64,000 nt of DNA from Amoebophrya sp. A120 (Eukaryota > Protista > Dinoflagellata). Where the stretch lies: the NCBI GenBank assembly GCA_905178155.1, contig CAJINV010000006.1, positions 2,644,658-2,708,657 on the forward strand. Reading direction: 5' to 3'. Shown here one piece after another: positions 151-64,000 of the stretch. A model generated the notes under the pieces. That model saw only the letters and a program-made list of their open reading frames with translations. It was not told where the DNA came from and did not search any database. Position 1 is the stretch's first letter, and every line of letters starts with the position of its first letter. Made by a program: the position numbers and the translations under genes.

Positions 151-3100
151 CTACTTCCCATAAATCCGGAAGTCCCCTTCCAGAGACGCCAGCATTTTCT
201 GGTTCCTCTCAAACACATCTGACAACAGACTGTCACTCTGGTTATAGTGGCGATTTAGCTGTTGAGACGTTGAAAAATTTTGCATGACAGAAGTGCCCAT
301 GGTAGAAGTTGCGGACAGATTTAGGAGCGATTTGTTCATCATCTGCGTTTGATGTTCTCTACTGCTTCCTTGCATGGTCGGCATAACTAATCCCGCGCTA
401 TTAGAAGAAGAAATGTTCTTGCTTGCCAACACCGCCGCAGCCGCCACGTCGTCCTTTGCGTTCCGGCCCAACAGCTATGACAGTGCACAGCTTCCCCGCC
501 GCGCCCTCATTTGTATAGCATGAACGGCAATACAAGCATCAGCAAGACAGCCGGTTTTGCATGACAATTTGGTACTAGATCGTAGTGCTACTTGGGCTAC
601 CAGAACTTGTCATGCATAATAGTGACAGGAGGGAAAGCGTGGAATTGGTATTCTGCATGAGAAATGTGAACGAGGGGGAGTTGTGCACTGTAATACCAGC
701 TCCGCCTGGCACCGGATCAGCTCACGTCGCGCCAGCCCCACACAGTCGATGTTCGCAAACGTTTCGTTCGAGATGGCGCCGGCGGTTTTCCGCAAGGGGG
801 AGTTTTGCTTTTGCTCTTCCGACTTCACTAGCACTTGATACTCAAAGATCACAGGAAAAAAGTATTACAGTTACAGATTTGTTGGAGTTTCATCATCACA
901 AAGTTGCTCGACATGGCAACGAAAACCTGTGATGCGCAGACTATAACGGAAAACACGCACGAAATGAGGCTGGCGCTGGTAAGCATTTTCTGCATGACAG
1001 AGGTTGTCTGTCTTGCTTGGCTTCTATCACGTTGTGTAAGTGTAACACTTTTTTCTTACGATATCAAAAACCTTGCACGCGCGCACGTACTCGAGAAACT
1101 CCTTTTCCAGCGCGATCTGGTTGGAAAACGACCGAACCATCCGGCCCTTTATGGGAGTGTCAGGATCGAAATCGACATAATCGAAAAATTTGCAATGCAT
1201 AAAATGTAGGGCCCGCAAGGCCTGTGTTGGAGAGGAGGCAAATGAGACCGATCGCAAGCCTGTTTAGCCCTATACATGTACTGCCAGAGTAGCATGACAG
1301 GCGCAATCTTCTTTGCCTACACAGCATGACAGACTGGGTTTTGGTGCTCCCAAAATTTGTCATGCGCCACTTAGAAACTGAGGCTCCAACTGGTATCGAT
1401 TTTATGCATCACAAATTATTTCGATTTTGTTAATTTCGATCCTGACGCTTCCATACCCTTCTCCACCGTCGTGATGACAAACTCGCTTCTATTATCCCGG
1501 GGAAACATCCCCCCTCCCTATATCGAAAAGGTACGTCGCAGAAAATTTGCAATGCTGATTTGCGACCACAAATGATCTCTGTCTTGCAAGAAGGCAATTC
1601 CACAGGCCCCGCCGCATTATGCAGGCGATTCGTTTGTGATGCTGTTTGGCCTACAGCGCAGACGTTTCTCATGCTAAGCGCCTAGGCCAAAACCTCTCTA
1701 CTCAGGCTTGATGTGGGCCTGCAGTCCTCTTCAGCAAGACAAATCTGATTTGTGTACTCAAATCCAGCATCACAAATTTCGTTTTCGATATGGGGAGGAG
1801 GGATTTTTCCTTTTGATATCTATCCTCGGCAAAGACGTACGACCCACGCTGCAGTCTGTAGTGGGAACAAGACGCGCTACACATCAAATGCCTATAACAA
1901 ACCTGGAGGCGCAGCGTAGGTTTGCTTACCTACAAAAGCAGCATCACAAAGCCACCGGCTCCTCCTGACTCCAGTACCACAGATGGAAAATGCCGACTAC
2001 CTATGGGAGGCCGCACAAGAGATGTATCGCGCATGCAAATATGCATGACAAATCTGGTCGGGCGGGAAGTACGTTTTTACACAGGATAGTTTCGGGACTT
2101 CGCCGTCCGCCCCGTCTCGTACTCCATTCGCGTTCCGTCGAGAAATTTCGCATCGTGAGAAAAATCAGTTGTCTCAGTCTCAACTTGTAATGCGCAACTT
2201 CCTTGAAACACTTGTTTGTCATGCTCGACAGGCAAGAAACCCTTCTTTCGTATCTGTTTTCCCACTTTGTGCCTGACGCATCACAGGTTTTCTCGTCTAT
2301 CACGCTGACCAACTTTGTGTTGCTGGGCCTACTTCTGCAAAGGTTTGAGACCGACACAGTTGGTTTCCTCACGATATTTCGCGCGGATCAGGTAGTTCGC
2401 CTGCGGATGGAGAGGGAAATGACCGCGTTCGTCCGGAGAAGTAGCAGTAGCGGCAGCAGCATTACAGTGCACACCCCCCCCCACCCCTCATTTGTCATGC
2501 AAAAACCCAAATCCAGTTGCTACCTTGTGGCACGACCGTGTGCATGACAAATTCCGGAAAAAATCCAAACAGTACCACACTCGGCGCATGAACTTGTCAT
2601 GCACAGGGTCCACCTGTACTGGTGTTTGTAATGCGGCTGATGCCATACGAATGGGGGGGAGGGGGAGTTGTGCACCCTCATAAGCAGGCTCGTAAAACTC
2701 GTAACACGCAAACCGCCCGACATTTTCCACAGACATTTCGTGTTTCAGGTGCAGGTTGCTTCTGTTCTTTTCCGTGAGAAAATCCCCGTTTGTGATGCCA
2801 GCCAGCTGCAACAGCGTTGACGTGGACGCATTTTTGATACTATGCGACGAAACCTGGCTGCGCTCCGAAAACGGCCGGGGTGGTGGGACTGATAAAAAAC
2901 ATGTCACGATGAAGCGATTTGCTTGTAGATCCAGCACTATGATTTTCCGCAAGAACAGTAGAACCTGCTAGTACTAGTAGATTGATCAAAGCTAAAAAGA
3001 CCGAAAAAAGTTGTTCTGCTCGAACAAGTAGACGCAAAGTGAATGGACAAAGATCAAGTATACCATCCCTCTTCCCCTCCGTGCCGCCAAACCACCGAAC

Positions 3101-6100
3101 CGCGTTCGCCAACAGCGGTAAATCGAATTCCGAGGCCACGAACCGGCGATTTGTCCGACCGCACCTCCAAAACTGGCCGTTGGAGTAGGATTCGTAACAG
3201 TTCATGGGTAGCACTTCCACCACCGAAGACAATGAGTCACCTCCTGCCTGTAGACACTCCATCGCCCAGATTTGCTCCTGCTTCGCAAAAAGTGTCAAAG
3301 AGCTGGTTATTGAAGACCCGCCAGGAGTGCTGTTGTATTCGGGTAGAGCCACGTAGCTTATCCTGTGTAAAAACGTCCCCACACCAGAGTCAAGATCTGC
3401 TAGACAAATCAACCAGCCTTGGTTGTCTGGCATGACAAGTTTGTCCTCGTAGTGTAATCCTGTTTAGCTAGTTCAGAAGCATCACAGATCTAGCAGAGCA
3501 TGCTGATTCTAGCATCACAAATTCCAAAATACGAATAGAAAACGCTTCTCATAGGGCTCCGCATGAGAAACATTTTTGGCATGCAGAATTGCATGACAAC
3601 TCTGGGGTGGGGACGTTTTTACTCGGGATATAGCTCGGCAAGGAATTATTTCTCACCCACACGGCCAGGACTGCACGCGAATTGCTCTTCTGCTCCACCA
3701 GTTCGTCTAGGCTGGCTGGATATGCATTCGGAAAACTCTTGTCCAGGTCTGGAAGATGAAAGCCAGGTTCTTTGTCATGCTTGCCTGACATGAGTTCAAA
3801 ACTTTGTCATGCTAGCTACGGAACGGCTCTGCTTGTCCTACTTTGTAGTGCAAACGAAACGCTCTCTGTCATTTGCACAATACGCAGCCCCTACACAGCA
3901 GCTTAGCACAAACTTCTCATGCTTGGCTGTGCACGAGGAGAGTAGACGCTTGTGGTTCTTTCCACCAAACTTCCATAAACAACTTTCCAGCCCCGGACAA
4001 CATCTTTGCAATGCGTACTGGCGACACGTGGTCGTCTGCGTAGACAGAGGAGTGTACATCACTTGTGGTTTTCTCCAACTTCATCGCGGACGGTAGCGGG
4101 GTGACGACCTCTGCATGCTCTTCCCCCGGAGCTGCACCAACGCTGCAGCTGATCTCGCATCTGGCTGCTAAATCTTGCAGCGTCGTCCGTAGTGAAGGAT
4201 TTAAATTTTGTTCCGCGAGTTGTCGTAGTTGCGCAGGTCGTGCTCCGTCGGAAGTAGCCTCCGCTGTTGTTGATCCTTGTTGCGCAGAAGGTGTGGTTGT
4301 AACACCACTCTGCAGTAGTTCCTCCAATAGCTTCTGCAAACACAGCCGCACCGGGTAGCGCCAGCACAGTGGAAGAGTGTCGTGATTCAGGAGATATCCT
4401 ATGTAAAAACATCCCCACCCCAGAGTTGTCATGCAGATTTGCAATGACAGGAACATTTGTAGTGCGCATCGCCAGGAGAGGCATTTTTAGTCGTGTTTTG
4501 GAACTTGTAATGCTGTAAACAGGATAAGGAGACGGATTTCTTGTGCTGCTTCCCTTGCTAAACTGCACGACAGTACAGCCTGCAACTTGTGATGCGTGAC
4601 ACCCAAAAGTTCTAGGTTTGTGTTGCAAAATCCCCATCTTGACTCTGGTGTGCGTGTGGGGACGTTTTTACTCAGGATAGGAGAAAGTACTGCTTCATCT
4701 TTTCGTGTTGGTACATGACGCCGATTTTCGTCGTTTTTGACCGCAGATCCGTCGTCGTCTTCACGGTGCGATTATCAAATGCAAATATCTTCCCTGGATG
4801 TCTGGAAATACCTGTAATGCTGAATGGGCATGAAGATTGATTGAGGGCGTCTTCAAGTGCAATGAAGCATGACATTGGTGATCTACGGGCAGGACGTCCA
4901 TGACGCATGAAAAATTTTTCAAACGCTTTGTCCTCATGCGCAGTGCGCACTGCAAGGTCAGCGACTTTGCATGACGAAAGTGCGGCGCTTTACGTGCTGC
5001 TTCTACAATACAGATTTTTCACGAATTCGAAACACTCAACACAGAGCCAACCTTTCCAGACGTCCAGTCATCTTTGCACTGGATAGCGGTGGTCCGGAAT
5101 CAAGCAAGGCCAGGCGACCTCGACGAGGAGCAGCAAAGGTGAAGAACCGGAAGACAATGTCCTGCTCGTCGTCGTCGCACCTTGCCCTTTCTCTTCCGAC
5201 GCGCCGCCCGCATGAGAAGTTTCGTCTTCTCGTGGTCGCTGTTGTTGCAACAAAATAGGGTCGTTTTCAAAAAGGTTTCGCGCGGAACTGGTAATCACGT
5301 GGACTTTTACGACCGTGTCCCCGTCGGACGAGGCGATTTGTGTGGTCAGTTCCCCAACTCGACTGACACTTCTCGTCGTCCCTGACGGCCACCGTGCGTG
5401 CTCCTGTTTCGTGTAGCGGTCGAGGTAGCAAGTGGTAGTTTCTGTTGCTTGTCTCCCTACGTCCTCGCTTGATAGTTTCGTCGCAGTCGCAGTGTGGCGG
5501 TTGTGCGGCCTTCTATAATTGCTGCTGCTCGACGAAGCAGAGTGTGAAGATCCGCCATAGAAGTTGTTCCCCGGTGCTGGCGGTACGCAGATTGGTTCAG
5601 GGAGGTACTGGTTCGCGATTTTTACACAACACGCCAGTTTCTGCCGGATTTCCGTTATCACACGAAAAAAGTGTTACAGTGACACATTTTTCTGTGGTCA
5701 ATTCAGCAACACAAATTTTCTCCGCATGCGAAAGAAAACTTGGAATGCAAAGATCATAAGGGAAAACAGGTATGAACAAACGAGGCTCAAAGCCAAAAGC
5801 ATTTCTGGCATGACAGAGGTTGTCAGTCATGCAGGGCCTGCAAAGACGATGTGCGTAACTGTAACACTTTTTTCTCGTGATATCCGTGACCGCGTTTTCA
5901 ATGTTCCCGTTCAGCAAGGTCCTGTATGAAATGCAAAAGCATCGCACTAGTACTAGACCATTACGCCGGCGTCCAGGACGCCGGCGATAGGTGGCCTAGT
6001 AAGTCTAAACGCAACTACCAAGCAAACTAACAACAAAGAGGAAAAAACTTGGAGAGCGTTGGGCTGAAGACTAGTCGAAAGAGTCCCGCTCTTGGGAATC

Positions 6101-7081
6101 TGCTAGCGGAAACGCGGCCACTATTCGAAGCCCTTCGGGCCGCGGTTTTAGCATGACAAAACGGGCCCGCACTTGCTACTGAAGCCCTTCCCTAGTAGCG
6201 GCCCACATTAGTGGACGCGCGCGCCTTCGCTTCCGGGGCTTCTTCCTAACTAGCTCGCCCCCGTTCGACCCCCCCGGCCGCCGGCCTTGGCCTCGGCCCG
6301 GTCCCCCGCTTTTGGGCTTCCTGCCCTGCCAGCCTGATGTCTAGAGAAGACCTCTGCCCAGATATATCCCCAGATATATCCCCAGATATATCCCCAGATA
6401 TATCCCCAGATGCGGGAAGGGCCGCCCTTTTCATTTTGCATGCCGAGCTTCATCGCCCCCCCCCTACCCCCCCAAACGGGGCCGGTCTTTGGGGGTAGCC
6501 AGAATAGACCTGCTAAAAACCGGCCGGACCACCGCCCGCGTGGAAGACCTGCAGGATGTTTGTTCCCCGCGATGCCTTTTTTTTTCTTCCGCGTGTTCTT
6601 TTAGAAGCTTCCCTTAAGGGCCCCCTTAAGGGAAGTTTCTAGATGCCCTTTTTTCTAGAATTCATTTTCTAAGGGCGCCCCTATAATCTATAAGGGCGAA
6701 AAATCCGAGTAAAAATTCTATAGTGTTATTTTATAAAATGCATTGCAAATTTCCTTAGCGTGACAGATAAAATTGGTAATGCTGTTTTAGCTAAGGAAGG
6801 CGATTTGTCATGCATGTCTGCAATTAGTACGAGCTCGATACTTTTGCACAGCATATCCTGGTCCGCTTCCCAACTTTGTCAAAATAAGACACCGCTTTCA
6901 ACCGAGGCTGCAGAATCAGCCCCGTGTGGTCCTCAAACTTGGCCTCGACGCGACCGTTGGGCGAGATGATGATCCGGGTGGGGGCAGCGGCGGTGGAGGG
7001 GGAGAAAGCCACGGAGCTTCCAGATGCTGATTGCGCACCTGCTCCGGAGGTCCCAGTGGGAGGCGGTATAATCGGCGCCAT
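151..7081 (-). CDS. C5orf34-like protein (DUF4524/DUF4520-like), multi-exon
   Basis: I removed TAT..ATA elements at 5925-6855, 5656-5882, 4773-5085, 4395-4679, 3721-4017, 3359-3630, 2460-2682, 2151-2376, 1490-2088 (nested), 1150-1455, 847-1063 and 476-695, plus 5 nt each. This joins MAPIIPP..PTRIIISPNGRVEAKFEDHTGLILQPRLKAVSYFDKVGKRTR|TLLNGNIENAVT|EIRQKLACCVKIANQYLPEP ... EMSVENVGRFACYEF..LIRAK|FLDGTRMEY..EFVITTVEK|GRMVRSF..FLEYVRACKVF|EYQV..stop at 151. N- and C-terminal motifs resemble C5orf34 from memory. The frame across about 2700-3200 is not resolved (candidate GT-AG intron 2965-3063). Confidence 0.7.
5656..5882. mobile_element. Introner family F5 representative (TIR TATCACGAGAAAAAAGTGTTACAGTTACACA)
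   Basis: Other copies at 847, 8329 and 9829; related copies at 40880 and 63436. Confidence 0.88.
5953..6733 (-). mobile_element. Non-autonomous Helitron-like insertion nested inside an introner
   Basis: It splits the 5925-6855 element, whose halves rejoin to the family consensus. On the minus strand it ends in CTAG (5953-5956), preceded by a perfect 11-bp GC hairpin (5964-5986). It is inserted between A and T with no target-site duplication. The 5' end lacks the canonical TC. Confidence 0.6.
6357..6411. repeat. Tandem 12-mer (cccagatatatc) x~4.5
   Basis: Directly visible, inside the Helitron-like insert. A nearby palindrome agaagcttcccttaagggcccccttaagggaagtttct lies at about 6603-6640. Confidence 0.9.
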
Positions 7082-7738: not shown

Positions 7739-10067
7739 TCAATGTTGATCCCAGCTGGCAAATTCTTGGACGAGCAATTGCAGCAGCTCCGGACAGGTTT
7801 GTTGCATGAAGTGCCCCTTGTTCTCAAACACGATGGCCTGGTAGAAGCCGTTCCTATTTTCCTTCTTCGGGTTTGGCGTAATTTCGTCCCCATGATCATT
7901 CCCGTGCTGATTGTTCCGCATGACAAGGTCCAGGCAGCTCGCAACCTCGTCGAACTCGCGCCGTGGTATGAAGGGATCGTCCGACCCGCAAATGGAGAAA
8001 ATTTTTCCCGCATGCATTGCAAATATGACTGGGTCTGGAAACTTGTCATGCTGAGTTGCGGACGACTGAAGCGCTTGCAATGGCAGCCAAGCATGACAAA
8101 ATTTTTTCGGACACGCCTGCTGATGCCTAGGACGCGTCACAAATTACGTTTTTGCATGACAACGGAAGCTGCTCTTTTGTTGCTCTTGCAACACAGATTT
8201 TCCAGGAATGCAAGACATGCATTACAAGTTCCACCTGTCGTGGTCCCGACCCAGATATATTTGCACTGGATATCCCGCGTTTCCCCTCATCCTCTCCCAC
8301 TGCCACGGCTTATCCGGGAGTCCGTTTATATCACGAGAAAAAAGTGTTACAGTTACACATTTGTTGGAGGCTCTGCATCACAAATTTTCTCTGTGTGGCA
8401 GGGAAAACTTGTAATGCGAATATCATAAGGGAAATAAAACAGGAAGGAAATGAGGCTCCCAAGTATTTCCTGCATGAGAAAGGTTATCTGTGTTGCCGGT
8501 CTTGCATAGACTATGTGTGTAACTGTAACACTTTTATTTTCCTGTGATACTTTGGCTGTTTGGGATAGTACCCGGACTCCAGCTCGTTGCTGTTGTTCAG
8601 ATGCGTTACACAGGGCGAGATCAGGTAGAATACGGGCTTGGTGCACAGGACTTCAAAACTAGTACCGGCCGCGTCGTTATAATTTGGGCACAGTTTCTAT
8701 CAACTGTACATAGGTCTGGGTCTGGCAATTTGTGATGCCAAAGCATGGATGAGTCTGGTGCTTTCAAAAAGTGCAGCCAAGCATGACAAGTTTAGTTGGC
8801 GCCGTCTGATGCGTAGCACGCATGACAAGCTGCTGCGTTTTTGCATCACAAAAGAGTCGCCCGTTTGATGGCTATGCAATACAGAGTTTTCAGAAATGCA
8901 GGACATGCAACACAAGTTCCACCTTTCCAGACCCAGACATATTTGCAATGGATAGATTCTCCCGCAGAAACGCCGGGTCCATCACCTCCGCCAGGCGCAT
9001 CAAGCACTGCGCGCCGGAACTGTGCCCCAGGAGAAGGAGCGAGATGTTCGCTTTCTTTGTGCTACGTGGAGGTCTAGCACCGTGTTCTTGACCGACTGGT
9101 GCACCGACAACTTCGGAAACGTCTTCCACCTCTAATTCGTTTGCCAAGTGGTCCTCGATCTCTTCGCGCAAGGATTTCACCACAAACGGAATCCACACGT
9201 ATCAAATGCAAAAATGTCTGGGTCTGGAAGACTGCGAGACTTGTCATGCTTGTCTGGGATGACCAAAAAGTTTGCGATGCGTGTCCAAGAAGAGACAGAC
9301 CCTTTTGCCTGTCGTGCAAAAACGCAGTTTGTCATGCGAAAAACGCAACACAAAGAAGCGCAGATATTTCGCATGCGTGGCTGTGCATTATAGAGCACTC
9401 CCCATCCCCAGCGCAGCATCACAAGTTTCCAGACCCAGACACTTTTGCAGCTGATAACACGCTCGCTCGCGCGACGTCTGGATCGGGCATCGGCTTGCAG
9501 ATCACGCTACTCAGGTTCGGCACGCAGGTCTGGAGCTGCTGCGCGAGCCACAGATACTATGAAAGTGCACAACCCCCCTCCCCCTCATTTGTGATGCAAA
9601 ATACCGAATCCACCACTTGTGCTGAAGCACTGTTTGCATGACAACTCTCGGAACCTGAAACAGTACTACAGTTCGTGTGTTGATTTGTCATGCAGAAGGC
9701 CCATTTCTGCCGTTGCTTGTGTTGCCGTTCATGCATTACAAATGAGGAGGAGGGGGAGTTGTGCATTGTCATAGATACCAGTTGGCGCCCACAAGCGTGT
9801 CCTCGTCGCACCCGTTGCCAGGCAGAATTATCGCAAGAAAAAAGTGTTAAAGATACACACTGTGTTGCAGGCCAAGCAAGACAGACCAGCTCTGTCATGT
9901 CGGATATGCATAGGAGCTTCGTTTCATAGGCGTTTTCCCTTAGGATTTCTGCATTGCAAGTCTTCTCTCTCATGCAGAGGAATTTGCGTTGCTGAATTGA
10001 CAACAAATGTGTAACTGTAGCACTTTTTTCGTGGGATAAGAATCATCGCGATGTTAATCCTTGGCAT
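7739..10067 (-). CDS. RBBP9: RBBP9/YdeN-like alpha/beta serine hydrolase, 7 exons
   Basis: Elements at 9829-10038, 9558-9773, 9200-9456, 8698-8954, 8329-8549 and 8011-8272 removed. Result: MPRINIAMIL|PGNGCDEDTLVGANWY|LWLAQQL..PMPDPDVARASV|WIPFV..LLGHSSGAQCLMRLAE..ELESGYYP..KPWQWERMRGNA|GKIFSICGSDDPFIP..KGHF. The PGNG, MPDP, GHSSG nucleophile, DDP and GHF motifs are in RBBP9 order. Confidence 0.9.
9558..9773. mobile_element. Introner family F6 representative (TIR TATGAAAGTGCACAACTCCCCCTCCCCCTCA)
   Basis: Other copies at 476, 2460, 26807 and 32109. Confidence 0.88.
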
Positions 10068-13158: not shown

Positions 13159-13167
13159 GAGAGCGGC

Positions 13168-13352: not shown

Positions 13353-13368
13353 CCCACCCACCCGCGCC

Positions 13369-28242: not shown

Positions 28243-28494
28243 TATCAAATGATAAAATGTCTGGGTCTGGAAACTTGTGATGCTGGGTGGCGTATCATGA
28301 GGAGGCCACAACTGCCTGCACAGCATGACAAGCTTCTGAGCTTCTAGGTGTTGCCTCTTCTGCATGACAGACTGCGTTTCTGCATGACAGAAAAGTGGCG
28401 CTCTTGGGTAGCGTGCATGACAGATTTGAGAGTCATGCCGGACAAGCATGACAAACATGCACTCTTCCAGACCCAGACATTTTTACATTTGATA
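28243..28494. mobile_element. TAT..ATA element downstream of the stop codon (3' UTR or intergenic)
   Basis: TIR tatcaaatgataaaatgtctgggtctggaa, direct repeat gttcc/gttcc; close copy of 27087-27338. Confidence 0.9.
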
Positions 28495-44400: not shown

Positions 44401-47400
44401 ATGTCCAACATGAGCAGCAGCAAGAGGATGGTCTGCCGGCGCTACTATTTTACCTCATCACAACTGTATGCATTGCAAATATACGTCTGGGTCGGGAACA
44501 TTGTCGGTGAGAGACTTGTAAGATACAATTGCCGGCGGGGCTGAGAGCGTTCGGAAAACTTGCCACTGTGCTTGTTTTCACTTCAACGTCGACGTCGTGT
44601 TGCAACATTCTACGATTCTGCGTCACAAGGTTCCAGGACCACGAGATGATGTATTTTTTGCAATGCATACGCACCTTCTGACACTCACGACATTTTTCGA
44701 CCATGGTGTGGTTGTCCGAACAGCAACTACAGCCGATGAGTGTGAAAATCGTATCGTGGAAGAAAATGCTCCCTCCCGACGCCTCAAGGAGATTTGTACT
44801 GCTGGATATGTGTACAAAGGTTTTTCGATTTTACAAGAAAGCACTGCGTGGTTATGATGTGGCCGGTCGCCGTGCATAATTGCTGTTCAGTTTACTATGA
44901 CAGCACACAGCTCTGGCTGCACGCGAAACCGTTCGTACGCTACAACAAACTGCCGCCCAGGACGAAACCGTTGTCCTGTGCCGGCAGCCGTTGTCCTGGA
45001 CCGGGTGCCAAAGTGACTTGTACGGGTGAACAAATTCAGCACGATACGCATCAGCTGGCAACTGGGAGGGAGGATCATTTTTCATCGTGATAAACCTGGG
45101 TCCGAGTTTTGTTTGGCGTTCGGATCGTCCAGATGATATACCGGACAAATGCATCGAGAGAACGTGCGCCAACCCGTTCGCCACAGTATCTGGTGAAGGA
45201 CACCCGACACCGTTTTTGGAGGCATCACTCTCGGAGGTAAGGCACGATGAAGATACAGACCGGCACTGGTTCCAAGGTTGCAGGGAGGTAGTCGAAAATC
45301 CCGCGGACGTTGATTGCAGCGGCCTACTTACCGGCAGATGCACTGCCGAGCAGTGTTGCAAGAGGATGAATTTGTGTCAAAAGAAGCCCGCGGAAAGCGA
45401 TTGGTCAAATACAGAGATCGGCTTGATACCAGTCTATCCCTCTTGTGCTGATCGAGGGGGCGCCGTGATTGTGGACTTGTACTCGTCGTACCCACATAGC
45501 CTGATAAAGTGTACAGACGACATGAAGAACTGTCCAGATAACGTTTGTTGCTTCGAAGAGGGAGCTGCTACACAAGCACAGAGCTCAATGACCTGTCAAA
45601 ATTTCTGCGAGAATTTGCGCGACAAAAATGGTGGATCACCGTTTCTGGCACCGCTGGGGTCCTCGGACCTTCTGAACAAGGAATGCGCAAACTTTGACTC
45701 TACCGTCGGCGGCTGGTGCAGTGTGAAGGAATGCCAGTGCGGGTGCAATGAAAATGATGGCTTTTTTATCACTTTGAAAACAGTGCTGGCCCTCCGAGTT
45801 CTCCCAGAAGTGTTGCCATGCCCGGAAAATTGTACAGGCAGGAACGTTTTTTACTCGGAAGCTTGTTGGGGAAAAGAGGCACGAACAGCAAGCGAGGTAA
45901 GTTTGGTGTATCAGAACAAGCATAGTCTGCTAGTCAGTTGAACAAACAGCAACTACCACCTGACGCATCACTCTAGCCATACAACTGAGCCTTTCTTACA
46001 GACAACGCGCTTCCTTTCTTGGTGAGGCATTGAATATTTGTATCCGCGGCGCCTGTATTTGTCGTGGTAATGCATTCTGTTCTTCTGGTCATGATATCAG
46101 CACCACTGATAAGGATATAACTTTTTCCTGTGGAGACGATAGGGCCAACGCTTTTCGTTGTGATAGCCTTCTTGAAAAGTCTTCGCGGCGTGGGCTACGC
46201 AACATCGTTGGCGGACTGCACAACGGAGTACGACATGGAAAGCACTCCTCCCGTTCAATGAATGGTTGTCTTTGACTTTGTCGTGCATTAAAATACAAAA
46301 TGACGAGATGAGGCATGCATTAGCATATAAATGAAAATGGGTACTATGGGATGATCCATGCAAGGAAGCACTCCGCCTCCCTGCAGGCCACAGCCCTGGC
46401 ATGCGGAAAAGTACTGATGCAATTGGAGAAGAACTAGCGTGCTGTCTTTTTGGTTAAATTTGAAACACAAGTAATTGCCGCAGTCGCATGATTACTCTCG
46501 CCAAAATAGGCGTCGCACGAAATCGCATTTTTGCACCGTGGCGCGCGACTCCTTGTGCGGAAGATTGTTCTGAGTGAAACCTATATCCCCAAAATTTGTT
46601 CGCGGCCCAGTTCTGACGACAAAAAAACAAAGTTTTCAAGAACGAATAAAAAAATCAAAATGCATAGTAATATACAGGACTGGTCCAACCCAACGTACGG
46701 GAGGGGGCGGCTTTCCTTACATTGGGGAACACCTCATTACGCGTTGCTTATCCTGAGGGAAAACGCCCGAGCCCCAGAGGCAAGCGGGGAATTGTGCATC
46801 ACAAATCCGGAAGTTTTGGGAGTCACGCACGACAAGGTCCTATCGGTGGTGTAGGGCACGTTAGCAAGGATTGCCGCATATCAAAGCCATGAGCTTATTA
46901 TACTGTTTACAGCATCACAACTTCGAAACATGACAACGAATGCGCTTCATGGGGATACGCGTGACAAATCTTCCTGTGGATGCAACCCTGCATGACAACT
47001 CTGGGATGGGGACGTTTTTCCTCTGGATGTTGCTGTGTGGAAATTATGAGTGCCCTGCTGCCACCCCTACGCCGGTGCGGGTAGTGCCCTCGACATACCC
47101 ATTGGAAGCGAGATTCGACTGCAGTAATTCCGGTGATTGCCCTGTGGCTGACGCAGCGGGGGTTTGTTGCTTGGAAAATAGTGTAGAAGTCACCGCCCAA
47201 GGCCAAGAGGGAAGTACTCGCAATTGCCAAACATTTTGTACCAACTTGCCGGGCTACCAGGGGCCGAACGATGCAGATAAAAAGGCTGCTCGGTGCCGCG
47301 AAGATAAAGACATGGGCTGGTGTAGTGTGAGGAAATGCGAGTGCGTTTGTGACACGGATTCCGGCTTCGCCGTCCAGGACGATGGGTCTTGCTCGTGTGA

Positions 47401-50400
47401 TGTATGCGTTGCAAATATGACTGGTTTTCGAAGTAGGATCACGCAAACTTGTCATGCTAATTTTGAAACGAACGGAGAAAAATCTGCCTTGCACAATCAG
47501 CATCAAGGGAGCCATCAAGGAATGGATCCGTACGGTCGACCCTGCCTAGTTAGTCCCACAGCGGGGGTTCGCCAATATGTATAGGCGATGGACTACCCGG
47601 TCGGCGGAAAAGCTCTACCGCCGATCCAACGCTGATGATAATCAGCATTAAGGGAGGATGCGCAATTTTTGTTTTTCGGAGTAAGCATTCCGCATGTAGG
47701 CTAGGCGTGAGATGAAAGCCGAAGCCTCCGCAGAGCCTGTTATTATATATTCTGCGTGCATTCCAGACCTTCTGGCAGACGCAGATCCAAAAAGTAAAAT
47801 GAGCATGACAGTATTCCAGATCATCACTATCGCGGAGGGCAGTGCCTGCACCAGCCAGGACAGGCGCTATCCAATCAACCAACCAAATATCTGCATTCTT
47901 GGAAACCCAGACACATTTGCAATGCATATGATGAGGAACGTGGATACGTGGCAGTCGGGAATCAATTGGCGCAGACATGCGTTCAAAGAACGTGCGAGAA
48001 CCCGAAGGCCACTGCGGGCGGCGGTTCTACTGCATTCACGGCAGCAGATGTAGATGTACCCTTCAAAGACGGCTGCGACCCCGTTGGCGACGGGGGCAAG
48101 GTAGTTTGCGCCGGTGGCGCGGAGGGCAAGTGCACTGTCACGCAGTGTTGCAAGACCCGGTATTTGTGCCAAGGGTACGAGGGTGTATGCTCCAACAACT
48201 TCAATCCTCTCAAGGTGGCGCCCTCATACGAGGTCCTCGATTGTGCTGCCTCCATTGCCGACGCCGACGCTGTCGCGTGCCAACCTGCCGTGTGTTGCAC
48301 CGAAGAGGACATAGCGCAAGACCAAAGTGTTATTGTGCGGAAAATTTCCTCTTCCCCATTCCTGGTTTAGAAGCTACTGATGCTGGCTGTTAGTGGCCTT
48401 AAATCAGGTCTCTCTTGTTGCATACAGGGGAAGAAGCAGGAGTTCTTGTTGCGCGAAGAATTGTAAAGTCTGCAACTACAACCTGTGTAGCGTGTATGCG
48501 TTTCAGCTCACGGCCGACCCGTCTGTCATGCTCGACATCGGCCTAGGAGAGCCCTGCGCTGCCGTGGCGCAAAACAGGGCTGGTGTCCTTGCTCAAATCG
48601 GCATGGGAAAAAATTGGTGTGAACAAAAGTCGGCGGCATGGCAAATTAAGTTTATCTAGCTTCAGTACTATAGGGATGAGGGAGATTTTTTCATCTTGAT
48701 AAGCCAGAAAACCTGTGCAGACTTTTGCGAAAGCCTGGCGGACGGAAAGGCAGATGGTGCGCGAAGCGTTTTTATTGCCCCGGCTGCGGCAGCGGATAAG
48801 ACTAAAAAATGCAAAGGCCAGGCGGTCGCGGGTGACTGGTGCAGTGTCGCGTCTTGTGGGTGCCAGTGTAATGCGGCCCAGGGATACCATTTACACGCCA
48901 ACCACGTTAATTCCCCCGATGGCAAAGCAACGGGCTTTTCCGATTGCGTGCGGAAGACCTGCGCGAACCCCACACCTGCTCTTCCTCCAACAAGTCCGGG
49001 CGCCCAGTCGAGGCATTATGAGTGCAGCGATTTGTCCACGGTGCCGCGGCTCGTCCCGGAGGACTACAATTGCTTCACAAGCGAAAGCGACACTGATATC
49101 CTGTGTAAAAACATCCCCACCCCAGAGTTGTAATGCAAATCTGCATGCTGAAAATGTTTCTCATGCAGAGCCCCATGAGAAGCAGTTTCTATTCGTGTTT
49201 TGCAATTTGTCATGCTCCATTCAGCATGGTATGCTAGATCTGTGATGCTGCTGAGCTAGCTCAAACAGCACTGCGCTACGAGTCCAAATTTGTCATGCAA
49301 AACAGCCAAAACTTGTGGACTTGTCTAGCCGATCCCCATCTTGACTATGGTGTGGGGACATTTTTACTCAGGATAACTGAGTGCACCGATGCGAAGTGCT
49401 GCAGGACCCGGGTTCCCGTCGTGCGCGATAACGAAATGCAAGTAGAGCTGTTAGCGGGCTCGGCGGTGGCGTCGAGCGAACGCAGCGACTACGCTGCAGC
49501 GAATTTGATTGACGACAGGGGTAGCGCAGACTTCGCGGCTGCACTCCAGCAGGACAGTGATCTCTCTTTCTACAAGCTGCTCAAAGCGGATGCCGCAGAA
49601 ACTGGTCGAACAGAAGCTGCGGGACGCCGGTGCCCCTGGATGCAAATTGGTTTGGGGGCTGAAAAACTCGTCACAAGTGTGCACCTCTTTGCGTCAAATT
49701 CCGTTCCGCGGCTGGGCGTTTTGTTTTTCAACGTCAAGTACAGCGACCTTAACGAAGACGCCTCAGCCATTTCGCTCGAAGCTGTAAAAAATGCTGGCTC
49801 GTTGGTGGACGCGGGATTTCGCGTTGTGGTTTCATCTACGCCCCGAGATCCTTCCTCGTGGGGAGCGGACGATGCGTGCCCGGATCCGGAAGCTGTTGCT
49901 GATGTAGCTGAATGCGAGACAGTGAAGTGGGCCGGTGGCGCCGGCGAGCGGCGGTTCCAAAGAGTGGGTGATGGGTCGGAGGTGATCGTAGTCAACGAGG
50001 GTCCTCCGGGGTACAATAGAGGCCCAATTGATCAGGACCTGCCGCGCGGAGATTTTCGGCACCTGGTTGCGGCGAGGATTGAGTGCAAGAGCCAGCTATC
50101 AAATGTACATATCGAAGACCTGGGTCTGGGAGGATGCGAACTTGTGATGCTGCAGCTTGATTCTACAAAAATCTGTATTGCAACATGAACAGCAAATAAA
50201 GACATGGCTTAGAAGTTTTTGCCATAGCGAGAGGGCATTGCTCATGCGGTATAGGCATCAGAAAGCTCTCACAAAATCTGTGATGCTAGGGTATGCATCA
50301 CAGACATCAGGACTCATGCGTAAAAAGAATGTGCATGACAATCCCTGCATCCTTCCGGACCCAGATCGATATTTGCATTCGATGCCAGCCCGGCCGGTAC

Positions 50401-53400
50401 GTGATCATCGAGTTGCCGGTATTCTGAGTGAAAACGTCTCCACCCCAGAGTTGTCATGCAGATTTGCAATGACAGGAGCGTTTGCGATGCGCTTTCCCAT
50501 GATAGGCATTTTCAATCGCGTTTGGAAGTTGTAATGCTGTAAACACGATAAGCAGATAGATTTGCAACGCGGCTGTCCTCGCCAGCCTGCACTACACTAC
50601 GGACTGCAACTTGTGATGCGTGACTGCCAAAGCTTCTGCACTTGTGTTGCGAGATCCCGAGCTTGACTCTGAGGCGGGGACGTTTTTACACAGGATAGCC
50701 GGGGGCGGCCGCCGGCGAACGGCGTGTGTTGGGGCTGCACGAGGCAAAAGTTTACGCCGAATTCGCTACCATAAAGGTGTCCAAGCCTTCATCGGCATCG
50801 GCTACGGCATCGAGCACCTATACTCATACCAGCACCCCGAACGGGGCGGATCGACTTGTCGACGGAGAAATGGGTACCCTCGCGCAGACCGGAGTGGACC
50901 AGGGCGCGCAGAAGTGCCCCTGGCTGCAAATCGACCTGGGGTCTTCGCAGCATGTCGGGCATGTGGATCTCTATACCGCAGATCGGACTTCAAGGCTGGC
51001 CTTTCTGTTTTTTGCAACGGCAACGTTAGCGCTTGATGAAAACACATTTCTGGACGATTCAGACCTAGATACGATTTCTTCCTCTCTTAACGACGTGGGC
51101 TTCCGGGTTTTGGTGGCGTCCACGCCCCGGACCGCGTCAGCAGGCGATGCGTGCCCCGCCGTTCCGGGCGAAGCGGGAGCGAGTGACGCGAAACTCTGCG
51201 AGTTGGTGTCGTACGACGGCGGCAAAGGGCGCGACCGGTTCAAAAACGTGTTCTTTGATGCGAGTGGGGAGAAGAGGCAGGTGTCGGACACCGGCGGCCC
51301 GGGTGCGGAGGGGACATACGACCTGCTCTATCCTGAGTAAAAACGTACCCACACCAGAGTCAGGATGGGGAATCTGCTAGACAAATCAGCCAGCTTTGGT
51401 TGTTTGGCATGACAAGTTTGTCCGCGTAGTGTAGTGCTGTTTGAGCTAGTTTAGCAGCATTACAGATCTAGCATCTCGTGCTGATTGGAGCATGACAAAT
51501 TTCAAAACCGCATTAGAAAATGCTTCTCATAGGGCTCCGCATGAGAAACATTTTAAGCATGCAGAGTTGCATGACAACTATGGTGTGGGTACGTTTTTAC
51601 TCAGGATATGCTCAAGGCGAGGATCGAGTGCTGGGGGCACGAAGGACAGTACGTCATCATCGACTTGCCGGACCGCGAGGATGGATCAGGCCGCAGCCTC
51701 GGATTGCTGGAGGCCGAGGTTGCTGTCACCAGCGGCGGTGCTCTGGAAAGCGTCCGCGTGGACAAGACTTGCATATCAACTGTAAAAATGTCTGGGTCTG
51801 GAAGATTGCAACTTGTGATGCTGTCTCTGCATTTTACAAAAATGAATCTGTATTGCATCCCCAGCAAGAGGGCTCCAGTTTGTGCTACATGGAGAGGGTA
51901 TTTGTTCTCATGCGAGATAGGCATCAGAAAGCCCACTAAAAATCTGTGATGCCAGGTTGTGCATTACAGACGTCATGTGTCATGTAAAATCTGCATGACA
52001 TCCAGACCCAGACACTTTTACATTTGATATTGCAGTGGGTACCTTGAGTCCTACGCGCAGAGCAGGGAAGGAGAAACGATCCCACTGGGAGTTGAAGCCC
52101 CCACACCGGACTTTTGTATCGACCCCAGAGGCCTCCGGTCGTACGGCGCGCCGGCGACGCGGTCACACAAGCTTCCTCCCGAAGCCACCTATATCACCGT
52201 CGGGATATCAAATGCAAAAATGTCTGGGTCTGGAAGAGCGCAACTTGTGATGCTGCCTTTGGATGCCTAAAAAATTTGTGTTGCATGAGCAGCAAAAGGA
52301 TTCTAATTTTTGCTACGCGGAGAGGGCATCTGTCATGCGGATTAGGCATCAAGAATCCCTCAAAAAACCTGTGATGCTAGGGCATGCATCACAGACATCA
52401 TGGGTCATGCAAACTGTGCATGACAAGTCTCAGAATCTTCCAGACCCAGACATTTTTGCATTTGATACGGGAAGCAGTACCGCAATTACTGTTGCGTCGA
52501 GACGTGCGAGAAAGCCACCGTGGAGAACAAGCACTGCGAACGCCAGGACATCGTGGAGGCCTTCGGGGTATCGAATGCAAATATCGATCTGGGTCTGGAA
52601 ACTTGTAATGCTAAAAGTGAACAATGAGAGTTCCACTGCAATACGCAGCCAAGCATGACAAATTTTTGGGCTCCTATCATGTGTTGATTCTTCCGCATGG
52701 CAAACTACGTTTTTGCATGACAGGAAAGAGGACAGCTTCGTGCCCATGCATCACAGATTCTTGAGCCATGTCAGACGTGCATGACAAATGTAGCAATCTT
52801 CCAGACCCAGATCGATATTTGCATTTGATACGGGGCCATGTGGCCCCTGGACCCGAAAAAGCTCGAAGAGCACGGGGGAGGGGAAGTCGTTCCGAAGCTT
52901 CCGGGCACAATTTGCTTCGGCGGGGAGTGCACGGTGATGGGGTGCTGCCAGCTCCGGAACCGGGTGGGGGGCAAAAAGGAGGCCTTTCTCGTTATCGAAA
53001 GGAAAAATCCCCCCTCCCCATATCAAAACGGAACTTGTGATGCTGGATTTGTGTACACAAATCCGATCTGTCTTGCTGGAGAGGACTGCAGGCCCATATC
53101 AAGCCTGAGTAGAGAGATTTTCTTGGCCTCGACGCTTAGCATGAAGAACGTCCGTGCTGTAGGCCCAACAGCATCACAAACCGCCAGCATAATGCGGCGG
53201 TTGTCTGTGGAGTTGCCTTCTTGCAAGACAGACACCATTTGTGGTCACAAATCAGCAACAGAAATTTTCGAAATAAACATACCTTGTCACTATGGGGAGG
53301 GGGGGTTTTTCCTTTTGATACTGGTGCGCGGCCTGATTCTGAAATCCACCCTACCGGACTGGCAGTCGGAACGCGCCAGTATCAAATGCAAAAGTGTCTG

Positions 53401-56400
53401 GGACTGGAAGAGTGCGCGATTTGTCATGCAGCTTTTCCATGGCTCATGAGGTCTGGAATGCAGGACCTAGCATGACAGATTCTCTGCGATCTCTCTCATG
53501 CCCGCCCTGCATGAGAAACTCCCTCCCGACTTGATCACAACTGGCCGACTTTTGGTAATCATGCAACACAGATTTCTGCATGCTTCAGATTTAGCATGAC
53601 AAGTTGCATTCTTCCAGACATCCAGGGATTTTTGCAGTTGATAGCCAGAAACACGGTGCTGGCGTTCGTGCGGGAAAAGCTGGAGGCGGTATATCTTCCC
53701 GGCGGCGTCGGGGACCCCCCCGAAGGACAAGGGAACTTTTACCCCCTGATTATGAAAGTGTCAGAATCGAAATTGACAAAGTCGAAAAATTTGTGATGCA
53801 CAAAATCGATGTCAGTTGGAGCCTCAGTTTCCAAGTGGCGCATGACAAATTTGGGTGGAGCCGAAACCCAGTCTGTCATGCTGTTTGGGCAAAGAAGACT
53901 CCTCCTGTCATGCTACTCTGGCAGCGCATTGCATACCCCTAAACAGGCCGATAATCGGTCCCATTTGCCTGCTCCCCAATACAGGCCTTCAGTGCCCAAT
54001 ATTTTATGCATCACAAATTTTTCGATTTTGTTGATTTCGATCCTGACCCATTCATAGTGATGGAAAAGGTCAGCCTGGTTGCCGGAGGCGACAGCTTGCG
54101 GAAAACAGCCCGTCGCGCGCTCGACGACGCTATCGAATGCAAATATGTCTAGGTTCTCTCCTGGAAAGATGCAAACTTGTCATGCTCATCGTCAGTCACA
54201 CAAAATTCTCTCATGCAGGAGCACCAAAACCTTAAATTTTTGCCCACGCGGAGAGAAGATTTCTCATGCTGAGTAGGCATTGCAAAGCTCCCGCAAGAAT
54301 AAAACCTGTTGTGCGAGGCTCTGCATCTTCGCAGACCTGCCGGGTGATGCAAAACCTCCATGACAAACTTGACATATTTGCAGTGCATAGACGCCGACGA
54401 GGCGGCCAGCACGGCGACATGGAACGTGACCGAGTATGACTTCTATTTTGACACCGTGCTGGACCCGACGAGGCAAATCAAGGCGCTGACGACCGTGGAG
54501 CTGGTGGAAAGGCTCAACAAGAAGATTGGGAGTAACGTATCCAAAGGAAAAACGTCCCCACCCCAGAGTCACGATGGGGATTGTGCAACACAAACCTTGA
54601 AGTTTTGGCAGCCACGTATGACAAATTGCAGGCTGTATTGTAATGCAGTTCAGCAAGGGGTGGAGTCGCATTACGAATCCATCTGCTTATCCTGTTTACA
54701 GCATTACAAGTTCCAACACACGAACGGGAATGCCTATCATGGGGATGCGCATTACAAATGCACTTGTGCTTGCAGATCTGCAAGACAACTCTGGGACGGG
54801 GATGTTTTTACACAGGATATAGCGCCCAGGTGCGGGCGACGAAGTGCGGGTATTTTGCGCAGCCCGGCGTTGTCGGAACGAGCTGGGTATGGCCTGCAAA
54901 AATGTCTGGGTCTGGAAGGTTGTCAGGTTTGTCATGCAGATTCTGCATGATCCGCGACGCCTGTAATGCATGATCTAGCATCACAGATTTTTCAAGGGCT
55001 CTCTAATGCCTATCCCGCATGAGAAATTCCCTCTCCGCGTAACACAAACTGGACTCCTCTTGCTGGTCATGCAATACAGATTTTTTTGGAATCCAAAGAC
55101 AGCATCACAAGTTGCATTCTTCCAGACCCAGACACATTTGCATTTGATATTGTGTGGACAAACCCCCGGTGGAGACGTATCCTAAGTAAAAACGTCCCCA
55201 TCCTCCCATAGTCAAGATGGGATATCTGCTAGACAAATCAGCCAGCTTAGGTTGTTGCGCATAACAAAGTTGGCCTCGTAGTGTAGTAGTCGCGTTTACT
55301 TAAAAATAGCTTGCTCACCAGCATCACTGATCTAGCCTATTATGCTGATTGGCGCATGGCAAATTATTCCAAAGCACGACTAGAAGAGGCTTGCCATTGA
55401 GCTCCGCATGGGAAACCTTTTGAGCATGCAGAATGGCATAAGAGCTATGTTATTGGGTGGGGGCGTTTTTACATAGGATAAGACGCACATCAAAACAAAC
55501 ACCACGCTGTCCAAGTGGGACAAGCACGAAAAACTTATGACCCACTCAGGTGTTACAATTTCAAACGTTGCAATAGAGTCGGGGTTTCGTCTTGCATGAT
55601 GAGCATGACAGACTCGCAGAGCTGCGTTCCACTTTCTGCAATACAAATTTCGCCAGATAATTGTAGTGGGGTTTGGAGCTCCGGATAACTTCTCATGCGC
55701 AATCCTATGAGAGTTGGCTAGATCATTCGCACTCTTGCATCACAGATTTCCATATTCTATTGCAACCGATTTGAGTATTGTAACAGCTGAGCGCGCTATA
55801 CGACTGTGGTGGAAAATCGTCTTTGGGTGCATCGTTCTCCTGGTGGTGCTCATGTACTTGTATGTCTGCTACTTGCACCCCCTGACGATGGCGCGGCTGG
55901 AGCGGGAGGAAAAAGAGCAGGAGATGGCGCAGGCGGCCTCCGACTGGGCGAGCCACTACAACGTGCAGCAGGCGGACTACACGTCGGCGCAAGGCGGGCT
56001 CTTCGGCGTGACGCTGTCCGGCGGTTTGCCGAACAACCGGGGCACGCACGGCGGCACCTGGGGCGGTCCTTCGTCCTTCAGCGGCACCGCGGCCGGCGCC
56101 GGCCGGCCGCAGTCCTGGGGCGGGCCAAGCTCCTTCGCCGGAACGGCGCGAGGCGGGGGCGCCGGTATCAAAACGAAAAACTCCTTTTCCTTGCTTTATC
56201 CTTTTTCTTTGTGACGAGATGCTGCAATACAAATTTTTAATTTTGATTTGTGCTGTGCATCTATCACAAGTCGTACATGATCGCAAATCCCCGTTTGAGT
56301 ATGGGGACATCAAAATATCAAAGGATTATTTTAAGAACATTTTTCGACAACAGGCGGCCAGCAGTCCTGGGGCGGGCCCAGTTCTTTCGCCGGAACGGCG

Positions 56401-61883: not shown

Positions 61884-64000
61884 ATGCCGGACGAGGCGGA
61901 GGGAGCAGACCCTGGCAGCAAGCTATCCAATGCAAATACTATATGTCTGGGTCTGGAAAGAACTTGTGATGCAAATCTGTGAATGGCAGGTCGTGCACTG
62001 CAGTGCGCAGCCAAGGATGACAAGTTTATGACGCGCTAGGTGTTTCGTCGTTTTCCGCATAGCAAACTGCGTTCTTTTTGCCTGACAGGCAAGGGACCCT
62101 TTTATTCCTGCTCACACAACACAGGTTTAAGACTCATGCCAGACAAGCATGACAAACTTGCATTCTTCCAGACATGATCCAGGGATATTTGCAATGCATA
62201 CAAGCCAGCAGGGGACGATCAAGCGGAGCCGGCATCCCCAGAGAAAAAGTCGAAGAAAGAGAAGAAGGAGAATATCCTATAGCAAAAACGTCCCCATGAT
62301 TCCAGAGTTCTCATGCAGATTTGCAATTTTACAGGAATTATGCTTGTAATGCGCACTTGCACGCGAATTTGTGTCCGATCGTGCTTTGGAATGATTTGTA
62401 AAGCTGTAAAAAAACAGGAGAAGGGGATAGATTGATTTGTGACGCGGGTCGTCGTGTCCTTGCTAAAAGTTGTAACCTGCAGCTGCACTACAATACAGAG
62501 GGAACAAGCTTGGCAACATGCGTGACTCCTAAAACTTCTGGATTTGTCCTTATTTTTGCAGAGTTCTTTCTTCCCACTTATTGACTTTCGTGGGGACGTT
62601 TTTACACAGGATAGGGAAAAAATCGAAGGAAAAATCGCCCGACAAGGACGAGGGAGAGAAGGAAAAGAAAGAGAAAAAGATATCCTACGTAAAAACGTCC
62701 CCGCGGTATGGTCAAGATGGGAAATCTGCAACACAAATCTCCAAGTTTTGGGAGTTCTGCATGACAAGTTTCCGTCTGCAGTGGAGTGCTGGTCAGAAAG
62801 GAAAGCCGCATGAGAAAGCCATTTACTCATGATGTCTACAGCATTACAAGTTCCAAAACACGACTGGAAATGCCTCTCAAGGAGATGCGCATTACAAACG
62901 TTTTCAGCATGACAACTCTGGGGTCGTGGGGACGCTTTTACACAGGATAAAAGAAAAAATCGAAAGAGAAAAAATCAAAAAACGACGACGAAAAAGAGTC
63001 CGCGAGAAGTCCCAAGCCCGACGAGGGCGAAACCAAGCCGGGCGAGGAAGCTCCTGCTACGGCACCAGATGGGGTCCAACAAGTAGAGGCGGAAGCGAAA
63101 GCCACAGAGGGTGAAGTAGATGCGGAGCAGAACAACCCAACAGCTGGAGATGAGGGCAAAGGGGAAGGCGAAGCGGCAGTAGGAGACGGGGAGGAGGCCT
63201 CTGGAAGCAAGGAGCCAGGACCAGAGACAAATGCACCAGACGGAGAGCAGGACGAGAAGCCGGCCGGAGAGGACGGGGAACCAGCAACAGGAGAACAGGG
63301 AGCAGCAAAAACAGCACCAGACGAGCAAGCAGAATCCTCTGCCCTGGCTGCACCGGCGGAGCCAACAGTGACGAAAATAGAAAACGACGACGAAAAGGAG
63401 ATGGTGGTCAATGTGTCCCTACCCGGGGAGGGGGATATCCAAGAAAAAAACTGTGTTAGTGTAACTATTTTTGGCTGACAGCGTCACAAATTCGCTCTAC
63501 ATTACAGAGAAAACCTGTCATGCGTGGTTTGTAAGGGAAAACACACATGAAAAGAGGACTGCGTGGCTGTCTGGCATGACAGGCGTAACTCTGTTGCGTG
63601 TTCGGCGTCACAGATTTACACTTACACAGTTTTTTTCTTGCGATAGGTGAGGACGGCGGAATAATAAACCAGCAGACCACATTCAACGCCAGCAATAAGT
63701 CCCTCGACCTTGCGCAGCAGCAGAACCAAGTGCAAAACATCATTTCCACACTGCAGGACGCGATCCAGCAGCTAACCGAGGGCACGCATCTAGTCGACAA
63801 TATCGAATGCAAATACGATTGGGTCCGGATTTGTGATGCGAAATTTGAAGGATAGCGAGCATTTGTGATGCATGAATACGATTGGGCAGAAGTCTTTTTG
63901 TCATGCTGTGAAATAACTCAGTTTGTCATGCAAAACACGGTAGAAACCTCAATACCAATGGAAAAATTTGTGATGCGCAGATGCCGTACAAAACATCGCT
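61884..64000 (+). CDS. Lys/Glu-rich low-complexity protein, 5' part (runs off the window)
   Basis: Elements at 61924-62200, 62273-62613, 62681-62949, 63436-63645 and 63801-end. The joined frame MPDEAEGADPGSK|PAGDDQAEPASPEKKSKKEKKE|KKSKEKSPDK..EG|EDGGIINQQTTFNASNKSLDLAQQQNQVQNIISTLQDAIQQL is open. Confidence 0.7.

Follow-up and report, generated by a model that had tools for sequence, protein, structure and literature searches.

Introner elements and genes of the window

The window analysed here is a 64,000-bp stretch of the genome of the marine parasite Amoebophrya sp. A120 (assembly GCA_905178155.1, contig CAJINV010000006.1, positions 2,644,658 to 2,708,657), whose genes are densely interrupted by terminal-inverted-repeat (TIR) elements with TAT…ATA ends. 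As far as annotated proteins and transcript-like contigs show, these elements are removed in one fixed register, in which the base ahead of TAT and the four that follow ATA go with the element. Three annotated A120 proteins (CAD7953842.1, CAD7953830.1 and CAD7953834.1; gene models GSA120T00020707001, GSA120T00020701001 and GSA120T00020703001) match the window at 100% and were rebuilt from it letter for letter. The first gene model (P0001, 1722 aa) carries 23 elements within 44467..56349 on the plus strand, the second (P0002, 291 aa) six within 8011..10038 on the minus strand, and the third (P0003, 636 aa, DUF273) 17 within 22135..27930 on the plus strand.

Library-guided pairing followed by curation gave 92 paired elements of 149–931 bp, which sum to 25,235 bp or 39% of the window. 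About four partial copies that lack a partner end or are truncated (near 3721, at 29370-29540 and 60790-61055, and from 63801 onwards) are outside this count, and none of the 92 lies at 10.1–22.1 kb, the home of a retroelement. A scan of the window anchored on TAT and ATA found 121 pairs, 52 of them with a perfect 5-bp direct repeat (DR); the control, five dinucleotide shuffles of the window, gave 4–7 pairs each and none with a perfect DR. Among the 92 elements, the two DR copies match at 5/5 positions in 64, 4/5 in 12, 3/5 in 12, 2/5 in three and 1/5 in one. The sequence-only reading that this analysis followed up had counted about 90 such elements, with 5-bp DRs, on about a third of the window, and these figures agree with it. 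The TIRs, which it put at roughly 30 bp, are not uniform over that length: the two ends pair at arm positions 1–3 and 9–13 in 78–98% of the elements, but at positions 4–8 in only 34–79%. The arms begin with TAT in 87 of 89 elements, and A stands at positions 11, 12 and 13 in 72, 82 and 83 of them. Within families, arm positions 4–8 diverge by 10–39%, compared with 1–4% at positions 1–3, 9 and 11–13 and 8–20% in the interiors, and the two arms of one copy often differ there, even in young copies.

The lengths are spread evenly over the three classes modulo 3 (29/34/29), only 4 of the 89 elements with an assigned strand can be read through in any frame, and the longest DR-flanked copies (631–931 bp) hold no open reading frame (ORF) above 137 aa. 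The elements are non-coding TIR transposons with the attributes of miniature inverted-repeat transposable elements (MITEs), namely TIRs, a duplication of constant length and no coding capacity, and the flanking 5-bp repeat is likely the target duplication.

A second assembly (accession series JACKZZ01) was used as a replicate. It was found with a degenerate end pattern (loci L001–L160), and 59 non-overlapping long loci of the 160 (510 kb) were kept, eight overlapping and 93 short loci being left out. Element ends were called blind to positions 1–3 and strand was assigned with a codon model, which, on the window that it was trained on, agreed with the strand of 86 of the 89 elements and was never at odds with it. 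The replicate yielded 267 elements, 236 of them stranded and 31 without a strand call; with the 89 of 92 stranded in the window, the combined set comprises 325 introns. A BLAST match at E ≤ 1e-10 was found in the second assembly for 83 of the 92 window elements. The 359 copies of both sources form 101 clusters, and no orientation bias was seen in the large families, both orientations being common in the two largest (38:27 and 24:20). The second assembly carries the same families, with up to 95% identity to window copies, and about 670 matching stretches were estimated for one end pattern.

The 64 kb window and the 510 kb of the second assembly, a small part of the genome, contained no autonomous partner with the same ends and a transposase, and the 160 loci held no orthologous DNA in which empty sites could be seen. 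Of the 17 element junctions of P0003, 12 lie in sequence that is colinear with the orthologous protein of strain AT5.2, and the other five are at or past the end of the alignable part; this fits insertion, at the protein level only.

By every feature tested, these are the same elements as the introners that Farhat et al. described in 2021 (PMC7789003). The class and these copies were already known; the earlier reading had noted that introns of this type were reported for Amoebophrya. The parts of that paper on which we draw, here and below, describe A120 introners of about 240 nt in many families and 29,850 copies, with repeats that start with TAT, seven variable nucleotides and AAA, inverted repeats of 8–20 nt and DRs of 3–5 nt; a hairpin is proposed, splice sites are termed 'variable' and the border is given as 'unknown' (Fig. 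3 legend), and no autonomous partner was found in A120. Integrase-like TIR introner families have been reported in A120 as well (PMC12130899, likewise drawn on in part).

Evidence for removal at the RNA level

Deletion of an element together with 5 nt restores the reading frame whatever the element length modulo 3, just as had been noticed from the letters alone, and opens one ORF of 1420 aa that spans 18 junctions and another of 703 aa that spans 11. Offsets of +2 and +8 performed nearly as well as +5 in this restoration and the remaining offsets failed; it is the annotated proteins and the transcript-like contigs that fix the amount removed at exactly the element plus 5 nt. In the second assembly, a two-sided coding test was passed by 194 of 267 junctions at +5 and by 7–21 at out-of-frame offsets.

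The transcript-like contigs come from three runs (X3–X5) of one sample, labelled 'RNA?', whose RNA status is presumed and which are available as contigs only. Over 44250-49090 each run gives a 4.9-kb contig, at depth 71–81, that skips all seven elements present there. The same skip of element plus 5 nt was found at element 33362 (33357-33692 omitted, 331 + 5), at element 35995 (35989-36394 omitted, 401 + 5) and at element 38733. No contig covers the intron interior at the joints of depth 71–81, and low-depth unspliced contigs within one intron occur in X3 and X4. In the genomic run X1, contigs 44250-47017 and 46993-49090 run unbroken through all seven elements, and none of the six joint rows was seen in this one DNA run, which consists of contigs only. 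Removal takes place at the RNA level as far as the contigs show. The raw-read runs X9 and X10 gave 122 and 2 matching reads, all partial at element ends and none on exons, so that they are uninformative on these genes. The raw RNA reads of X9, which is from another sample, match only element ends at 26378-26430 and 28463-28494 and then continue into other sequence; a related end family is transcribed in that sample.

A single register of removal

Read in the transcript direction, on both strands, the intron is N+TAT…ATA+NNNN. The DR hides the borders, which is why the source paper could not place them; the register, given here as the number k of upstream DR bases kept, can be read only where the two DR copies differ. 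When k = 4 is applied throughout, so that each intron takes in one base ahead of the element and four behind it, P0001, P0002 and P0003 are rebuilt with zero mismatches over 46 element junctions and a single GT-AG intron of the ordinary kind. With k = 3 two of the three proteins fail, and with k = 0, 1, 2 or 5 all three do.

Single junctions gave the same result. Three RNA joints share no letters between their two sides and all read k = 4. They correspond to intron 44466..44673 (element 44467-44669, DR 1/5), the old intron 46228..46727 (element 46229-46723) and intron 48330..48705 (element 48331-48701, DR 2/5), each made of 1 nt, the element and 4 nt on the plus strand. Three further RNA joints within 44250-49090 allow k = 3–4, 3–5 or any value, and the joint at 38733 allows 2–4. 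The annotated proteins permit only k = 4 at 48331; they require k of at least 4 at 44467, 54888 and, on the minus strand, 8698 (intron 8694..8955, element 8698-8954, with an imperfect DR), and k of at most 4 at 44752, 26510 and, on the minus strand, 8329 (intron 8325..8550, element 8329-8549, whose imperfect DR allows k = 1–4). In addition, a contig piece that begins at 30363 suggests k of at least 4 for element 30046.

The cut stays precise at introns whose DR copies match at only 1/5 or 2/5 positions, so that repeat identity is required by neither the machine nor the aligner. The mRNA keeps four bases of the upstream repeat and one of the downstream repeat, so that in a fresh copy the original exon is restored. 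The boundaries of five old elements (22788, 27372, 45767, 46229 and 56166) were set with the help of annotation or a nearby TA(T/C).

Our literature search found no paper that gives the register or the +2 rule described below; the figures of Farhat et al. (Fig. 3, S19–S25) and the datasets of PMC12130899 were outside that search and could already show the register. All nine non-canonical dinucleotide pairs listed as 'predominant in A120' in their Table S4 (PMC7789003) begin with NT, as the fixed register predicts, although aligner bias could contribute to this.

Constrained and free positions

At the fixed register, the T at intron position +2 was changed in 0 of 325 introns, against 15 of 325 at the mirror base of the other end (p ≈ 6e-5), and the asymmetry held in the second assembly alone (0 vs 6 of 236, p = 0.03). 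Among the 15 mirror-end changes, 11 are A-to-G and would leave a U·G pair in place; the other four would not. Position +1 is free (G 107, A 87, C 69, T 62), and positions −1 and −2 as well as the first exon base also take all four letters. Positions +2 to +5 read TATC in about 60% of the copies, and +6 to +8 are variable. GT-AG occurs at the fixed register in 9 of 325 introns, so that canonical and non-canonical copies form one series. When all registers within the DR were allowed, 32 of 89 window elements had neither GT nor AG, 35 had GT somewhere and 42 had AG somewhere; the earlier statement that most have neither at any register was overstated, yet GT and AG coincide at one and the same register in only 2 of the 89.

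Constraint was judged against half the DR mismatch rate in a set of 230 copies, composed of 159 replicate copies, from which matches to the fetch pattern were left out, and 71 window copies found by the blind scan. On this benchmark, +2 (0/230) and the A at +3 (1/230 vs about 7 expected, p = 0.005) are constrained, +4 and −5 are not, and the A at −7 is weakly so (2/230 vs about 7 expected, p = 0.02). The A at −7 is present in 89 of 89 window elements, but three exceptions occur among the 236 of the second assembly.

Predicted folding paired arm positions 9–13 with probability above 0.5 in 86% of 86 elements, so that the ends could be brought together, which agrees with the part of the sequence-only reading that has the stem join the splice sites. 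Several results speak against the stem as the only determinant of the sites. Some old introns are still removed although their ends are not predicted to pair (44752 and 48331 according to RNA contigs, 22788 and 27372 according to annotation). No selection on an RNA-level stem was detected either, G·U mismatches being as common as A·C mismatches when the stem is read along the transcript (window, 95 vs 84; second assembly, 171 vs 163), and the constraint is one-sided, falling on the +2 U.

A GCA(T/A)NA(C/G)A-type motif occurs about four times per copy in nearly all young elements. It points either way and is shared by families whose repeats differ, and 369 of its 413 window matches fall within called elements. 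It was considered as a branch point and rejected, because it is mirror-symmetric near both ends (227 vs 228 of 325), is missing from five old introns despite their continued removal and decays with age. We infer that it is more likely a signal on the transposase side, a candidate transposase-binding site.

Positions of the elements and other features

Twelve elements interrupt coding sequence on the minus strand within 476..6855, in the gene at 154-7102, the strand being taken from restored ORFs and the codon model: 476-695, 847-1063, 1150-1455, 1493-1818, 1821-2088, 2151-2376, 2460-2682, 3359-3630, 4395-4679, 4773-5085, 5656-5882 and 5925-6855. Elements 1493-1818 and 1821-2088 are only two bases apart, so that their borders overlap within the repeat. 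The last element, of 931 bp, contains a GC-rich insert with four tandem 12-bp units near 6356-6410, and its extra interior sequence is possibly a nested insertion. The six elements of the P0002 gene, also on the minus strand, are at 8011-8272, 8329-8549, 8698-8954, 9200-9456, 9558-9773 and 9829-10038.

The retroelement that lacks introners spans 12174-20178 and contains a tyrosine-recombinase-like ORF (13336-14835; atlas matches with PF00589 in 13–36% of members) upstream of a reverse transcriptase/RNase H-like ORF (17353-19707; atlas matches with PF00078 in 10–28% of members). Its split direct repeats (A, 12174-12358 and 13168-13352; B, 12978-13158 and 19998-20178) give the layout A-B-A-ORFs-B with the recombinase before the reverse transcriptase, and it resembles the DIRS group. 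Pfam gave no match for the retroelement ORFs, for P0002 or for single exons.

In the P0003 gene the elements start at 22135, 22788, 23100, 23599, 23921, 24244, 24573, 24878, 25210, 25570, 25861, 26193, 26510, 26807, 27087, 27372 and 27584 on the plus strand, and the ordinary GT-AG intron, which has no repeats, is at 23298..23481. One element without a strand call (28243..28494) lies 3' of the stop codon. Ten plus-strand elements in coding sequence follow within 29624..34368 (starts 29624, 30046, 30976, 31296, 31646, 32109, 32439, 32680, 33362 and 33861), then element 34218-34368, whose strand was not called, and four plus-strand elements within 34706..36395 (starts 34706, 35071, 35431 and 35995). 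The restored ORFs at 29488-36684, in one or two genes, presumably encode an RNA-binding protein (RRM-like, then PWI-like), although their single exons have no Pfam match. Eleven elements on the plus strand (38733..42664) interrupt the restored 703-aa ORF, whose motifs we take to be metallophosphoesterase-like.

At the end of the P0001 gene, the old element 56166-56349 (intron 56165..56353, plus strand) has GT…AG at the same register and a decayed 3' arm, possibly a case of drift from a non-canonical to a canonical intron. Further downstream are element 57618-57940, with no strand call, elements 58639-58900 and 59015-59266 in a restored 135-aa ORF on the plus strand, and four plus-strand elements at 61924-62200, 62273-62613, 62681-62949 and 63436-63645.

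Mechanism of removal

This class raises the question of how tens of thousands of non-GT-AG introns leave the transcripts of an organism in which no U1 was detected, and the papers surveyed offer no settled mechanism, as the earlier reading had presumed. In the reported A120 inventory, U1 went undetected, nearly all spliceosomal proteins and U2, U4, U5 and U6 were found, and U11, U12, U4atac and U6atac were listed as absent (PMC7789003).

We consider it somewhat probable that a modified major spliceosome reads N-U-A(U) as the donor and sets the acceptor by its distance from the far arm. The TAT of the element would supply the donor N-U-A-U, comparable to GU-AU with a free first base, and the 3' site would be measured off from the far arm, at ATA+4, with a branch A at −7 as a possible starting point. 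Arm pairing would likely help to join the ends in place of U1 without being the sole determinant. Both arms carry TAT-N7-AAA, so either orientation would work. The GT/GC donor and AG acceptor of major (U2) introns do not characterise these elements (GT-AG in 9 of 325), only the T at +2 being kept. A cut made by position, whatever the boundary letters, makes it likely that the machine measures rather than reads the far end of the intron. Fixed branch-to-end distances in Yarrowia, Trichomonas and Giardia offer a precedent (PMC2483917, in part), and the MITE-derived non-canonical introns of Fritillaria are reported to be removed by the spliceosome (PMC11282704; bioRxiv 2025.08.15.670264, both in part).

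A more specific form of this proposal, tentative and rather doubtful, is that one end motif does both jobs. UA would be the whole donor, with the first base free and no U1, and the same motif in reverse would give the branch A at −7 and the acceptor ruler, with no AG. If so, any insertion, in either orientation and at any site, would be born a precise intron.

Several points weigh against removal by a modified major spliceosome. The spliceosomal step is inferred, no lariat, branch point or pairing with small nuclear RNAs having been observed. No branch motif was enriched on the sense side of the 325 introns (CTRAY 19 vs 22, YTNAY 221 vs 217), the constraint on the A at −7 is weak, and its 3 changes in 325 do not differ significantly from the 9 at the mirror base (p = 0.14). 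The free +1 and the free −2 and −1 conflict with the usual docking of G(+1) with G(−1). Since 11 of the 15 mirror changes keep a U·G pair, pairing could explain part of the asymmetry at +2. The five old boundaries set with annotation or a nearby TA(T/C) are not independent tests, and the 'RNA?' runs (one sample, contigs only) and the annotation may share a project and so may not be independent of each other.

A separate nuclease and ligase, as in euglenids, could instead bind the paired arms, make its cuts 1 nt ahead of the stem and 4 nt beyond it and free a circular or linear intron. We regard this as a real possibility, though not the probable one. Cut sites at fixed spacers from an inverted repeat, with the boundary letters ignored, recall the Euglena rule 5'-N3CDG…CH'GN5-6|R (PMC12501133, in part), and the predicted pairing of the arms in most copies, the undetected U1 (PMC7789003) and the missing branch consensus are also in its favour. 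However, the stem has no bias of G·U over A·C, some old introns are still removed with no predicted pairing of their ends, the strictness is one-sided (U at +2 strict, its partner free), and U and A are also the letters of the spliceosomal donor at +2 and +3.

Removal by the minor (U12-type) or a U12-like spliceosome is very unlikely. The U12 donor is RTATCCTT and U12 introns tolerate odd ends; N-TATCC resembles this donor, given the frequent TATC at +2 to +5. The U12 reading was nevertheless rejected, as neither the donor nor the CCTTRAY branch motif is matched: the branch motif occurs in 1 of 325 introns, equal to the antisense control, +1 is a pyrimidine in 131 of 325 and +6 to +8 vary. Transposon-like U12 introns with inverted repeats have been reported in Physarum (PMC11282704), but the U12-specific RNAs are the very ones listed as absent from A120 (PMC7789003).

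Precise deletion from DNA before transcription, as in the elimination of internal eliminated sequences (IESs) by ciliates, is highly improbable. One repeat-length is lost at ciliate pointers and also here, X1 may be the source sample of the window itself and contigs drop rare variants; yet the X1 contigs run through the seven elements of 44250-49090 with none of the joints, the register and the asymmetry at +2 turn with the direction of the gene on either strand, and X3 and X4 contain the unspliced contigs within one intron. Template switching by reverse transcriptase across the hairpin between the direct repeats, for which such a hairpin is the classic setting, hardly deserves credence in view of the exact joints at decayed DRs, those with zero shared letters at depth 71–81 with no contig over the intron interior, the mere 4 of 89 elements that can be read through and the colinear AT5.2 orthologue of P0003.

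A single register turns 'no splicing signature' into the rule N|UA…AUA-NNNN, which predicts the lariat 5' end and branch positions, the essential base (+2 U) and the spacer lengths that matter. It implies that much of the reported diversity of A120 splice sites consists of random target-site letters at, or misplaced around, one fixed position, and it would allow the A120 annotation to be corrected.

Comparison with known systems

Nonconventional introns of euglenids share with the A120 elements the non-GT-AG ends at fixed spacers from inverted repeats, repeats resembling target-site duplications and a probable MITE origin (PMC12501133; PMC11282704). Those introns have CDG…CH'G with spacers of 3 and 5–6 nt and a purine at the exon start, and are reported to leave as circles, whereas the A120 elements have TAT…ATA, spacers of 1 and 4 and a free exon start, and do not carry the euglenid motif. 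The introns of Fritillaria borealis are likewise MITE-derived, with TIRs and target-site duplications, mostly non-GT-AG and massively gained; they prefer AG-AC and AG-AT ends, U1 is kept and U2AF is duplicated (PMC11282704; bioRxiv 2025.08.15.670264). A120, by contrast, has no fixed letter at +1, −2 or −1, and its U1 is reported as undetected.

The introners of Micromonas, Aureococcus and Polarella are also TIR elements that become introns on insertion, part of the target duplication being removed, but they use or co-opt GT/GC/GA-AG (PMC12130899; PMC11282704), and in A120 GT-AG is confined to 9 of 325. In contrast to IESs of the ciliate type, the joined form was not found in genomic DNA (0/6 joint rows in X1, one DNA run of contigs only).

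The closest match is with the A120 introners as described by Farhat et al. (PMC7789003), with which the window elements share the organism, the TAT-N7-AAA start of the repeats, the DRs, the family structure, removal from RNA and mostly non-GT-AG ends. Compared with that account, the present analysis gives a single register, with one base removed ahead of the element and four behind it, a constant offset of 5 nt, a U at +2 that never varies and a removal for which DR identity is dispensable.

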